Of a DNA stretch of 64,000 nucleotides, positions 7,556-54,560 are shown one piece after another; position 1 is the first letter of the stretch, and each line of letters opens with the position of its first letter. The stretch comes from Eledone cirrhosa (Eukaryota). Under the pieces are notes generated by a model. The model was not told the DNA's origin and made no database searches. It saw only the letters and a list, made by a program, of their open reading frames with translations. A program made the translations under genes and the position numbers. The DNA lies in assembly GCA_964016885.1 (NCBI GenBank), contig CAXHJY010000106.1, positions 1 to 64,000 of the forward strand, given 5' to 3'.

Positions 7556-7757
7556 AGTTTTAATATAGATGAGATTCTACAGGACTAGAACTGTTTCATT
7601 CATTAGAAATCATCAGGAATCTCTGATTCCTGATGATTTCTAATGAATGAAACAGTTCTAGTCCTGTAGAATCTCATCTATATTAAAACTTTTATACTCT
7701 GCTATGTATTGAGTACCTTACTTACTGTGGTTGCCTCCGATTCAACCCGGAATAACG
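7556..7757 (+). mobile_element. palindromic hammerhead-containing element, family H1 (Penelope-like terminus)
   Basis: Perfect 66-bp arms at 7556-7621 and 7625-7690, then a ~65-nt tail; flanked by (TA)n on both sides; related copies at 13240-13372, 21595-21652 (minus) and 50850-50970. Confidence 0.75.
7625..7673 (+). ncRNA. minimal type-I hammerhead ribozyme motif
   Basis: GATTC-CTGATGA-tTTC taat GAAt-GAAACAG ttctagtc CTGTA-GAATC: stem I 5 bp, stem III ACAG/CTGT, GUA cleavage triplet; base of stem II mismatched. Confidence 0.65.
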
Positions 7758-8227
7758 TATATATATAATATATATGTATAATATATATATATATATATAA
7801 TATATATATATAATATATATAATATATATGTATAATATATATATATATAATATATATATATAATATATATATAATATATATATAATATATATATATAATA
7901 ATATATATAATATATATATAATATATATATATAATATATATATATAATATATATATATATAATACATATATATATAATATATATATATAATATATATATA
8001 TATAATATAATATATATATAATATATTTATATATAATATATATATATAATATATATATATATAATATAATATATATATAATATATTTATATATAATATAT
8101 ATATATATATATATAATATATATATATATATAATATATATATATAATATATATATATAATATATATATATATATAATATATATATATAATATATATATAA
8201 TATAATATATATATAATACATATATAA

Positions 8228-8411
8228 TTGTTTCTACTTTTGGCACAAGGCCAGCAATTATCCCAGTGTATTACTGGTACTTTATTTTATCGACCCCTTA
8301 AGGATGAAAGGCAAAGTTAACCTCGGCGGGTTTTAACTCAGTCCGTAAAGGACGTAACTGTGCTGCAAAGCATGGCGTCCGACACTCTACCGATACTGCC
8401 AATCCACCGCC
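8228..8411 (-). mobile_element. tRNA-derived SINE family A, full length, inside (TA)n
   Basis: Same body and Pol III boxes as the other copies. Confidence 0.85.
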
Positions 8412-8891
8412 CTATATATATATATATAATATATATATAATATATATATATAATATATATATATATAAAATATATACATATAATATATAGATATATATAA
8501 TTTATATATAATATATATATATATAATACGGACAATGTATGTTTATATATATATATATATATATATATATATATATATATATATATATATATATATATAT
8601 ACATACATGAATTGTCCGTTCTGATTGAAAGCAATATCCCTGCTTAGCCAAGGAAGGCATCCTTAAAAAATATATGTGTGTATATATGTGTGTGTTTGTA
8701 TCTGCAATGGTGTCGGTCGTTAGTGTACCCATATATACATGCGTGAGTTTATGTGTGTTTCAGTTTAATTAATTTCATTTTGGTTTGTCCCAGGAGTTTA
8801 GGGGTCTTGTAGATAATTAATTTGAACAAAAGGCAGAAAATGGCGATGTTGTGGGTTCGTTTAATGATAGTGTTTAAACAATGCCCAGAAC

Positions 8892-9015
8892 CAGGGCCAA
8901 GATTTATTGGACTTTGAAATTAAAAATTGAGGGTTTGTTGAACATCCTAATTTTTCTCCATGAGCCCCCACGAAACTAATGTTCCCCGTGCGCCCAAGTT
9001 CTAAATCTGGCCCTG
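8892..9015. mobile_element. putative hAT-like MITE
   Basis: Termini CAGGGCCAAGATTTA / TAAATCTGGCCCTG; flanking 8-mers CCCAGAAC / CTCTGAAC match at 6 of 8 positions (possible target-site duplication). Confidence 0.55.
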
Positions 9016-9609
9016 CTCTGAACCCTTGGAGTTCAGGTATTTCGGGACAAAATTTGGTCCTTTAATCTTTCACCACACCACATCAGAATAATAATAATTA
9101 TTATCATTATAATGAAATATTAATTAATTATTAACATAATAGTAATTGAGGCGCCCCTATTCTTGTGGAGGACCTAGGATTCTGCCCAAGTCAACCTTAT
9201 AAATAATATAGTCCTGGAATGCTTTTGATCATATATCATATCATATCATATCACACGCAGACACACATACACACACACATACACATATACATATATATAT
9301 ATATTATATATATATATATATATATATATATATATATATGTATATATATATATGGGTGGGTATATTAACGACACCCTTCCAGATACAAAACACATACATA
9401 TGTATATATATGTATACTCACACACACGCGCATATATATATATATATATATACATGTTTATATATATATATATATACTATACATATATACATGTTTATAT
9501 ATATATATATATATACTATACATATATACATGTTTATATATATATATATATATATATTACATACATACATACTATACATATATACATGTTTATATATATA
9601 TATATATGC

Positions 9610-9780
9610 AAAGGGTTTCTGAAGTTTTCGTCTACCAAATTCCACACGCAGGTCATTGGTCAATCTCGTGGCTAAAGACAAACGAAGAATCTTGCCTAAG
9701 TTCTAAGTGGCCGAGCAGCAATGGAGAACCCAGAAACGCGTGTCTAGTAAGCGAACACCTTAACCACACAGCCACGCCTG
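9610..9780 (-). mobile_element. diverged tRNA-derived SINE (another family)
   Basis: Minus strand starts CAGGCGTGGCTGTGTGGTTAAG (A box) with a degenerate B box, followed by a CORE-like ...TTAGGCAAG... segment. Confidence 0.55.
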
Positions 9781-10119
9781 TCCAGAGTCTTTTGGGAAAC
9801 AGAACAGACACACGTACACAGAAAGGCACGACCCAAAGCAGGCCTACCCGAATCGCATACATATATATAACATAACACTAAACAGAAACACACACACATA
9901 TATATATATGGTATAACACTACTCAGGATTACACACACACACACACACACATATATATATATATATGATATAACATTACTCAGGATTACACACACACACA
10001 AACACACACACACTCACACACATAAATAAATATCTATATATATATAACATAACACTAAACAGGAACACACGCACATATATATGATATAACACTACACAGG
10101 ATTACACACACACACACAC

Positions 10120-52750: not shown

Positions 52751-52774
52751 AATATATATATATATATATATATA

Positions 52775-53231
52775 TACGATATTAAATAAATGGAAACTAT
52801 ATTTATAAAACCATATTTATTTCATTATATATATTTCAGGGATATCATATTAACAATATGTTATGCCTTCTTCAGACAAAATACAATATAGACAGTTTTA
52901 TAGATAAATAGATTTGACATACCGTTCAACATCGACTTGTATTTGAAAAAGTTGATTTGGCAGATCAACTTTTTCAAATACAAGTCGATGTTGAACGGTA
53001 TGTCAAATCTATTTATCTATAAAACTGTCTATATTGTATTTTGTCTGAAGAAGGCATAACATATTGTTAATATGATATCCCTGAAATATATATAATGAAA
53101 TAAATATGGTTTTATAAATATAGTTTCCATTTATTTAATATCGTAAATATACTCCAAATACTTGTTGAGTGCTTTTATATCAGTTATAAATATTTACTAG
53201 TTGTAACCCAACAATTTAAATATAACTTTCC
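52775..53231 (+). mobile_element. palindromic hammerhead-containing element, family H5
   Basis: 182-bp arms at 52775-52956 and 52964-53145, 7-nt spacer; tail ATACTC (ACTC at 53151)...GAGTGC; (TA)n flanks. Confidence 0.8.
53039..53100 (+). ncRNA. minimal type-I hammerhead ribozyme motif
   Basis: TTTTGT-CTGAAGA (53045)-AGG...CCT-GAAA-TATATA-TA-ATGAAA. Confidence 0.7.
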
Positions 53232-53949
53232 ATATATATATATATATATATATATATATATATATATATATATATATGTGTGTGTGTGTGTGTGTGTGTG
53301 TGTGTGTGTGTGTGTGTATAAAAACAACAAAGAAACGCCGAAGTGTGTGTACACAGGGGTATATATGGTGTACCGAGTGCATATCTACATATTTCCTTAA
53401 TGATGTACACTTCCTCATCAGCAAAGTTTATGTAAACACTATAACTACGTATTTTATCATATATATACATATATATATATATATATATATATATATATAT
53501 ATATATATAGTTAATATGAGAGGTTTGTCTATCTTATAATGCCCAACAGAGAAATCTACCCCACCTTAGTTCGATGCTTCCAGCGTTGAAATAACCATGT
53601 TCTTTAAATCAGGATTGAAGTGAACTTTGATGACATTGTTCACACACGGATCTCTCTTTTTCTCTCACACACACACATGTGTGTGTGTGTGTGTGTGTGT
53701 GTGTGTGTGTGTGTGTGTGTGTGTGTGTGTGTGTGTGTGTGTGTGTGTGTGTGTGTGTGTGTGTGTGTGTGTGTGTGTGAGTGTGTGTGTGTGTTGCCTA
53801 TTTCGTTTCCTTTTAACTTGAATTAGTTGAAAAAGTACGTTCTTTGACTATCTCCATCCCCTATACATAAATCTCTTTATTTGTTTATTATGGCTCTATA
53901 TAATGTCTATTGAGAAACACAATATTCTCAACATATTTGTTATGTTTTG

Positions 53950-54054
53950 GTCCCGCCGAGGTTGACTTTGCCTTTCAACCTTACGGGTTCGATAAAATAA
54001 AGTACCAGTAATGCACTGGGTAATTGCTGGCCTTGTGCCAAAAGTAGAAACAAT
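53950..54054 (+). mobile_element. SINE family A, 5'-truncated
   Basis: Family body. Confidence 0.8.
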
Positions 54055-54082
54055 TATTTGTATATATATATATATATATATT

Positions 54083-54286
54083 TAGGAACGAGTAGGACCC
54101 CGACGGCTGAGCTCAAGCCGTTTCGACGGCTAATTCTGGTCCAGAATTCAGTCCAGAATTAGCCGTCGAAACGGCTTGAGCTCAGCCGTCGGGGTCCTAC
54201 TCGTTCCTATTACCCACTCTGCTACCCTAAGTATTGAGTACTTTGGTGCGTTATGGTCCACCTGGTACCTTACCACATTTCCTTCT
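54083..54286 (+). mobile_element. palindromic element, family H3
   Basis: 57-bp perfect arms at 54083-54139 and 54153-54209; hammerhead 3' half; tail CACTC...GAGTAC. Confidence 0.75.
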
Positions 54287-54298
54287 ATATATATATAT

Positions 54299-54560
54299 AT
54301 ATCACAGAAAAAGAGAATCAGTGTTGCGACGAAAGGAATTTATTGGACATATTACAATTGTTTCTCGGGCGACCAGCTCGAGGCACGATCGATGTGGTGA
54401 TCAAACCTGACTCTGAAATCGCGCGGTCCTCGGATGTCTCGATTCTACGAAGCAGATTTTCCTATACCTACTTTTTCTGTGATATCATACTCTGCTCTAC
54501 GAGGGCATCGAGTGCTCATACGACCTACGGCATACGGACACATTAAACATCCAATACCAA
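54299..54560 (+). mobile_element. element with 15-bp inverted ends plus ACTC...GAGT tail
   Basis: ATATCACAGAAAAAG / CTTTTTCTGTGATAT (ends 54485), then cATACTC...GAGTGC; (TA)n flanks; no hammerhead core seen. Confidence 0.5.

Follow-up and report, generated by a model that had tools for sequence, protein, structure and literature searches.

Penelope-like elements (PLEs) insert copies that carry a one-sided tail and are often accompanied by a head-to-head inverted copy, and the origin of both features has been named an open question (Craig et al., 2021, PMC8557442). Among PLEs, the Hydra clade is defined by hammerhead ribozymes, (TA)n targets and a distinct C-terminal endonuclease (PMC8557442). 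Here we describe a 64,000-nucleotide stretch of Eledone cirrhosa DNA (assembly GCA_964016885.1, contig CAXHJY010000106.1, positions 1 to 64,000, forward strand; hereafter the window) that is populated by short fold-back units most likely derived from such elements. Like Hydra-clade PLEs, these units combine (TA)n targets, canonical type I hammerheads, an inverted 5′-truncated copy and a one-sided tail; they differ in lacking an open reading frame (ORF) and in the length of their tails, 53–115 nt from hairpin start to repeat as compared with the 30–40 bp cited in PMC8557442. Their ends adjoin a small bulged hairpin, conserved by covariation, that occurs twice in tandem in intact elements of other animals. 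This hairpin likely tells the element's enzyme where copying starts, which would explain the one-sided tail.

The closest biochemical precedent is PAc, the Poseidon PLE of Anolis, for which an in vitro study described two start sites and, in the portion available, no general determinant of them (Frangieh et al., 2024, PMC11167929). There, as here, an RNA stem-loop lies at a start site, and the PAc RNA drawn in Fig. S1B of that paper resembles our motif by eye in its 4-pair base, 3′ bulge and upper stem. PAc differs in clade and sequence, and in having one AC-rich stem-loop, inside the ORF, that holds the start itself; the available portion contains neither a tandem pair nor a covariation analysis. 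A second relative is the non-LTR retrozymes, hammerhead-bearing, ORF-less PLE derivatives (PMC7229834; bioRxiv 10.64898/2026.07.22.740005), the main texts of which do not mention a hairpin; nor do the words 'hairpin' and 'stem-loop' occur in the main text of PMC8557442. Non-LTR retrozymes form tandem arrays, whereas the window units are single fold-back insertions. Reverse transcriptases (RTs) are also recruited by small structured RNAs that fix the start of the cDNA, such as the 3′ stem-loops of long and short interspersed nuclear elements (LINEs and SINEs), the R2 3′ untranslated region (UTR) and the bulged epsilon stem-loop of hepatitis B virus. Those structures are single and lie at, or contain, the start; here there are two copies, each 3′ of its own separate start and not copied from it.

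Results

A bulged hairpin adjoins the ends of fold-back units

The window comes from a genome rich in (TA)n and holds about 20 short units that follow, completely or in part, a single plan: (TA)n, inverted arm, small centre, direct arm, tail and (TA)n. Inverted 5′-truncated copies and one-sided tails are both present, and the units are all 5′-truncated products. Simple repeats flank every unit, the departures from (TA)n being the unit at 19843, which lies within (TC)n, and the tail at 19591, which closes in (CA)n. The two arms of one unit are 98.5–100% identical, whereas copies of families B and E diverge by 10–22% (family D is too young for this comparison), which suits one RNA copied twice.

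The initial annotation of this DNA proposed that an RCTC able to pair with a downstream GAGY marks the breakpoint of the inversion. All 14 of the sites that it listed are present at or near the positions it gave: ACTC/GAGT at 7696/7711, 49395, 53151/53167, 54216 and 54489/54510; GCTC/GAGC at 13093/13120 and 52518/52560; and further copies at 13312, 19512, 20236 (minus), 25662, 33122 (minus), 48154 and 49034 (minus). The loose form is nonetheless common by chance and not significant, and we rejected it as a marker: RCTC..GAGY matches 130 times on both strands of the window as compared with 49 ± 11 times in 100 block shuffles, and 64 of the 130 come from a 45-nt satellite at 16.5–18.1 kb. The true motif is more specific, namely NCUC, one to six stacked pairs, a loop, a 2-nt 3′ bulge (UU, UC or UA), GAGN′ and RC. 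When at least three stacked pairs, the 2-nt 3′ bulge and a loop of at most 45 nt are required, the window contains 12 matches as compared with 2.4 ± 1.4 in shuffles (maximum 6); they are spread over eight families, and all 12 lie 43–62 nt upstream of a simple-repeat run. Three copies had been overlooked, at 14525, at 19947 (with an 83-nt inner part and (TC)n flanks) and, mutated, at about 50913. Among the sites first taken for solo tails, 19512 and 25662 carry long inverted arms and 33122 a mini arm.

The ends of the arms lie close to this hairpin. The outer limit of the arm end falls at −6 to +1 of the hairpin in the 10 units, of 11, whose arm was aligned, and at −1 in the eleventh (hairpin at 19512), the exact end being blurred by TA microhomology; the earlier distance of 2–9 nt before RCTC corresponds to the inner limit. 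Raw reads bearing the same species label, compared with positions 54150–54562, point to the same end genome-wide. The largest row of loose ends leaves the family D unit at 54210, 6 nt before ACTC, and runs into (TA)n, with 3541 and 3072 reads in two runs and 91 contigs in run X1, these being read counts rather than locus counts because the libraries are restriction site-associated DNA sequencing; 653 smaller rows accompany it. A diverged subfamily in the reads stops at the equivalent position. These data support a sharp tail-less end throughout the genome for family D.

The hairpin covaries across families

To place the motif in a wider context we used loci outside the window (L numbers), chosen by a protein word from the endonuclease end and thus blind to the hairpin. 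This word had no match in viral contigs, seven in host DNA within two metagenome-assembled genomes (MAGs) and at least 121 in metagenomes. Both MAGs, G001 (L001–L003, L007) and G002 (L004–L006), are filed as bacterial and contain animal DNA with Hydra-clade PLEs; G001, at 12 Mb, looks largely host-derived. Among the matches listed, 99 loci have at least 250 nt downstream, and 23 of these meet the motif rule (17 true hairpins and 6 spurious ones by reading) as compared with 6 on the opposite strand, 5 of 113 within the ORF and 2.6 in shuffles. Many of the remaining loci have decayed, lack a tail or are cut short.

An anchor that ignores the pairs under test retrieved 53 rows, 23 of them with the anchor followed by RC; in these 23 the closing position pairs in 20 and the first upper position in 22. 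We then curated 32 hairpins, one per family, comprising 20 blind-anchor rows, one found by eye and 11 from the window, several of which were first detected by the strict rule. The closing pair is G-C in 23 and A-U in nine, and the successive upper pairs hold in 32, 26, 26 and 25 of the 32, exclusively in the register of a 2-nt bulge; bulges of 0, 1 or 3 nt show nothing. In a MAFFT alignment of 28 of the hairpins, pairing holds in 98% of cells and 42 changes are double-sided (shuffles, 0 of 500; slid controls, 22–51%), and RNAalifold, unprompted, returns the same eight pairs. The window's tail hairpins are the top 16 matches of a covariance model, which locates further hairpins in outside loci; 24 model-fitted, mostly non-seed matches pair at 98.8% of positions and add a U-A closing pair. 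Rfam gave no match on the hairpins at E ≤ 5 in the window or E ≤ 1 in four outside loci. The initial claim of a conserved, covarying cis structure beside the inverted-arm end is supported, with the stronger covariation found above the 2-nt bulge, in the upper stem.

CUC and GAG are invariant, pointing to sequence-specific recognition. On the sense strand of the 32 hairpins, G.U pairs outnumber A.C pairs 12 to 3, and loops in three families are of what we take to be the UUCG and GNRA types; from these sequence features an RNA form is favoured, only modestly, over single-stranded DNA (ssDNA). We set aside G.U counts from the model-fitted alignment, as the model penalises A.C. A tree of the endonuclease ends (23 of 28 rows built, poorly resolved and with branches lengthened by frameshifts) gives only a hint that a C-G first upper pair occupies four separate places and that the two U-A loci are sisters.

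Two tandem hairpins correspond to two types of end

Intact elements outside the window carry two tandem hairpins, 33–47 nt apart, about 15–45 nt before the start codon. At 11 ORF starts located by a protein word, the strict rule finds two hairpins within 170 nt in six, one in two and none in three, as compared with two-hairpin frequencies of 0.003 in shuffles and 0 on the reverse strand. By eye, L007 and L039 have two hairpins, L028 and L128 have decayed pairs, and L077 starts between them; L154 has both hairpins, L153 the second only, and L152 and L155 are truncated. The closing pair varies (G-C, A-U, U-A) and has changed jointly in both hairpins of L011 and L071.

Each hairpin marks an end of its own. 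At 17 of 20 loci (21 rows, since one locus contributes two), tail-less ends that pass directly into simple repeat fall 1–7 nt before hairpin 1; direct full-length copies show such ends as well (L011). Tailed ends precede hairpin 2 by 4 nt in the L007 family (three copies), by 5 nt in the L153 family (two copies) and, by eye, by about 7 nt in a sixth copy. Every one of the 16 model matches in G001 is a PLE tail. The tail continues 29–52 nt beyond hairpin 1 in eight loci (other or overlapping), slightly under the hairpin gap of 33–47 nt, and the ends stay in a 7-nt window while the distance from hammerhead to hairpin varies from 36 to 76 nt. The proposal that the motif marks the inversion breakpoint is supported in that the arm end adjoins a hairpin, and incomplete in that a second hairpin marks the tailed end, so that both termini are marked. 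Solo tails that begin at the arm-end position occur at 48152 in the window and at L003, L044 and L082 outside it.

The 5′ junctions of long copies also fall at both sites, at hairpin 1 in L007 (2598–2640) and 8–18 nt before hairpin 2 in L077 (2582–2625) and L153, so that these sites would be stopping points in addition to starting points.

ORF-less units retain the hairpin as well (L011, 2875; L082). In L011, positions 2630–2988 (minus strand) hold a unit that is tandem, lacks an ORF and measures about 280 nt; it carries the bulged hairpin, a hammerhead (two Rfam Hammerhead_1 matches, 35.9 bits) and a tail-less end 3 nt before the hairpin; a stretch resembles polymerase III A and B boxes by eye, with no Rfam tRNA match. 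This unit, of the non-LTR retrozyme kind, is a retrozyme-like hitch-hiker of Hydra elements. A short ORF-less element between (TA)n runs (L082, 649–870; L066, 88–125) starts at one hairpin, with a second 59 nt on.

Units of the window

The units, copies and tails of the window, with their hairpins, are as follows.
7553–7757, plus: family B unit; inverted arm 7553–7621, 3-nt centre, direct arm 7625–7695, hairpin and tail, (TA)n on both flanks
7696–7714, plus: bulged hairpin of the family B unit; A-U form, 3-pair upper stem, UU bulge
12566–13157, plus: family A fold-back unit; centre long and unpaired, tail
13093–13123, plus: bulged hairpin of the family A unit; G-C form, scoring a weak 15.7 bits in the model; the UC bulge is followed by a single A-U pair and an internal loop
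13205–13373, plus: family B direct copy without inverted arm; type I hammerhead core at 13246, hairpin 13312–13330, tail
14430–14596, plus: family D unit, its inverted arm exceeding the direct one; hairpin 14525–14548
19300–19591, plus: family E unit; long inverted arm with hammerhead at 19420 (minus), joined almost directly to hairpin 19512–19531, tail
19843–20060, plus: family K fold-back unit in (TC)n/(GA)n; hairpin 19947–20037
20147–20297, minus: short direct copy of family J; hairpin 20203–20236, tail
21598–21653, minus: tail-less family B copy, stopping in (TA)n right before the hairpin position
25574–25720, plus: family G unit; inverted arm, direct part of about 14 nt, hairpin 25662–25681 with a C(UUCG)G loop, tail
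25783–25841, plus: tail-less family D copy, stopping 5 nt before the hairpin position
33041–33143, minus: family D tail with mini inverted arm; hairpin 33099–33122
48152–48239, plus: family C solo tail, beginning at the arm-end position; hairpin 48154–48201
48939–49045, minus: family I solo tail; hairpin 49001–49034
49062–49478, plus: family H fold-back unit; one hammerhead per arm, 49288 (plus) and 49162 (minus), hairpin 49395–49419, tail
50847–50967, plus: old family B copy whose hairpin has mutated; model match 50905–50940
52369–52601, plus: family C fold-back unit; 1-nt centre, hairpin 52518–52563, tail
52622–52750, plus: tail-less copy of a family D subfamily
52775–53231, plus: family E fold-back unit; identical arms of 180 nt, hammerheads 53045 (plus) and 52875 (minus), hairpin 53151–53170, tail
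54083–54285, plus: family D fold-back unit; hairpin 54216–54239, tail; genome-wide tail-less end at 54210
54294–54561, plus: family F unit; inverted and direct parts share only about 16 nt, hairpin 54489–54513, tail; probably one long inverted arm
54904–54975, minus: tail-less family G-like copy with a hammerhead-like core

The arm centres are tiny and frequently sit on short natural palindromes, and most junctions show TA microhomology. The inverted arm exceeds the direct arm in units 14430, 19300 and 25574 and in the outside locus L139. At 14263–14412, pieces of family D enter the 5′ half of the hairpin, jump back to the arm and end again at the tail-less site, which looks like a template switch inside the hairpin. 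The longest two tails, those of families H and E, have an extra small hairpin about 25 nt past the motif (49443–49468, 53196–53216 and also 19557–19577) with an AA step in place of the bulge and GAG, possibly a decayed second hairpin.

The units are most likely pieces of Hydra-clade elements

From their sequences, the fold-back units are most likely 3′ pieces of (TA)n-targeting, hammerhead-bearing PLEs of the Hydra clade. The initial assignment to PLEs is borne out by the hammerheads in the arms and by the same motif beside Hydra-clade ORFs. Our own pattern scan of the window located type I hammerheads, six in all, within arms of families B, E and H, and none in family A; an Rfam scan of the window reported none, its single match being a tRNA-like sequence at 23005. 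A tblastn search with 120 proteins detected no PLE ORF piece in the window (best E, 0.21), so that the clade assignment rests on cis features. Outside the window, Hydra motifs are present in the 10 loci checked as follows: RW[KR] in 10, DK[TS] in nine, CxCx5C in seven, CxxC in 10 and CxH in 10; none of the 10 has a CCHH-type word. Homologue P0016 has a Pfam GIY-YIG domain.

Published consensus sequences tie the motif to the same clade. It lies at the termini of three of the six Hydra consensus sequences available in the supplement of PMC8557442 (Hydra-2_Amil, Hydra-1_Ajap and Hydra-2_Ajap); Hydra-1_Ajap as published starts 2 nt before hairpin 1 and contains both hairpins, and Hydra-1_Amil has an upstream look-alike only. 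In the Naiad and Chlamys consensus files, one of 21 anchor-word matches forms the full motif by eye, in Naiad_Mmer and far from the end (PMC8557442 supplement, part 23). This hairpin has a G.U closing pair and lies about 100 nt past the stop codon, adjoining a probable selenocysteine insertion sequence (SECIS) region some 490 nt from the end; it may be a chance occurrence. Naiad and Chlamys PLEs lack canonical hammerheads, which the window units possess. Readings of the units as SECIS, Helitron, miniature inverted-repeat transposable element or SINE were dropped given the hammerheads and the Hydra-clade context.

Discussion

A proposed docking site for the reverse transcriptase

Starting from the observed structure, tandem arrangement and positions of both types of end, we think it probable that each hairpin is an RNA docking site for the RT-endonuclease, fixing one start of reverse transcription a few bases upstream. 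A transcript that continues past the 3′ end into the following tandem unit would carry both hairpins. The protein would nick both strands of (TA)n, probably as a dimer, the form predicted for PAc; one nicked 3′ end would pair with the AU-rich patch before hairpin 2 and yield the tailed direct copy, and the 3′ end of the other strand would pair with the patch before hairpin 1 and yield the tail-less inverted copy. If each hairpin sets one start in this way, the length of the tail would equal the spacing of the hairpins. Displacement of the second cDNA by the first, with both extending to a common RNA 5′ end, would form a near-perfect palindrome; if the first cDNA instead stalls on meeting the second primer, the product would be a solo tail or a long inverted arm with a tail, and the units whose inverted arm is the longer, like the solo tails beginning at the arm end, suit such stalling. 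PAc cuts and extends both strands of AT-rich DNA, two internal starts bound its tail, and a dimer is predicted (PMC11167929). A bolder version, in which a dimer on the two hairpins primes two opposite-strand cDNAs on one RNA at one (TA)n target, the spacing of the hairpins sets tail and inverted arm, the closing pair is a family recognition code and all endonuclease-positive PLEs share the design, strikes us as conceivable but doubtful as a whole.

Several observations weigh against a docking site. The hairpin-2 ends come from two families in a single genome (G001), and our search of the window linked none of its families to an ORF or a hairpin 2. Three tail-less ends are outliers, at −13, −13 and −23, and in one subfamily (L013, L034, L100, L120) a look-alike hairpin about 30 nt upstream of the arm end marks no end. 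The hairpins of Hydra-1_Crog are divergent and the Hydra-1_Obim consensus shows no recognisable motif (PMC8557442 supplement), and the main start of PAc lies inside its stem-loop, at a site without target homology (PMC11167929). The hairpins fold with ordinary energies (z, −1.85 to +1.26), and in window families B and D another fold has the lowest energy; the 32-family set is hand-curated and its shuffles ignore relatedness, and the A-U form belongs mostly to one host (8 of 9).

The least unlikely of the alternatives is that the hairpins direct cleavage or termination of the RNA just upstream, the RT beginning at the resulting 3′ ends: an identical geometry would account for all of the end data, and RNA-seq read ends coincide with the PAc start sites (PMC11167929). 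In the same study, however, a longer RNA 3′ end left the main PAc product unchanged, arguing for internal initiation, and tailed copies retain an intact hairpin 1, so that cutting there is not obligatory. Next, and also unlikely, the hairpins might form in ssDNA, either plus strand or cDNA, with the GIY-YIG endonuclease cutting beside them to resolve an intermediate or to cut donor copies. The tail has been attributed to endonuclease resolution (PMC8557442) and is required for recognition by the Penelope endonuclease (as cited in PMC11167929), Ssn nucleases of the GIY-YIG kind cleave close to hairpins in ssDNA, guided by sequence and structure (PMC11893778), and 5′ junctions fall at both sites here too (L007, L077, L153; solo tails). 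The excess of sense-strand G.U over A.C and the UUCG and GNRA loops nevertheless suit RNA, and hairpin 2 is missing from the tailed cDNA though it marks its start.

A role as 5′ UTR packaging or translation-control sites, with the ends set solely by AU-rich patches pairing with (TA)n, would fit the closeness of the hairpins to the start codon and the TA microhomology at most junctions. We find this quite improbable, given that AU-rich patches are plentiful in these UTRs and yet the ends fall within the 7-nt window before each hairpin, that this window is kept despite the varying hammerhead distance, and that ORF-less units retain the hairpin. Finally, the inverted arm could arise by fold-back copying of the first cDNA, a cDNA hairpin halting the polymerase at its foot; the stop geometry matches the tail-less ends, the tiny centres often lie on short natural palindromes, and self-priming has been proposed (PMC3846280). 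As the sole mechanism this is already contradicted: it cannot make units whose inverted arm exceeds the direct arm (14430, 19300, 25574; L139), tail-less ends occur on direct full-length copies (L011), hairpin 2 is left unexplained and the hairpins are weak. We accordingly rate it as very improbable.

Docking of the RT-endonuclease, the reading we prefer, would turn an open mechanistic question into a directly testable one, since a motif of 20–30 nt, covarying across dozens of families and lying just beyond each end, specifies the exact mutations to test. It would also establish the minimal RNA handle of a telomerase-related RT that is compact and targets (TA)n, and with the hairpin as a marker, ORF-less fold-back debris and retrozyme-like units can be classified. 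Hydra-clade elements, their one-sided tail and their inversions are already known. The initial annotation knew of no description of the motif, and our literature search, which did not reach most subscription papers and the Repbase notes, likewise found none of the motif or of its tandem link to both ends.

Other features of the window

At 44625–46490 (minus strand) lies the 5′-truncated ORF of a non-LTR retrotransposon (621 aa open; Pfam RVT_1 and zf-RVT) that abuts a long (TATG)n run and is presumably R4/Dong-like; we rejected it as part of a PLE, as it belongs to an unrelated element. Tandem arrays occupy 2258–3635 (28/56 nt), 16476–18095 (45 nt), 20361–21293 (116 nt) and 37535–41424 (119 nt). 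The 45-nt unit, the source of half of the loose motif matches, resembles part of a dispersed SINE-like repeat. The tRNA-like sequence found by Rfam spans 23005–23075 (44 bits) and is probably a SINE head or a pseudogene.

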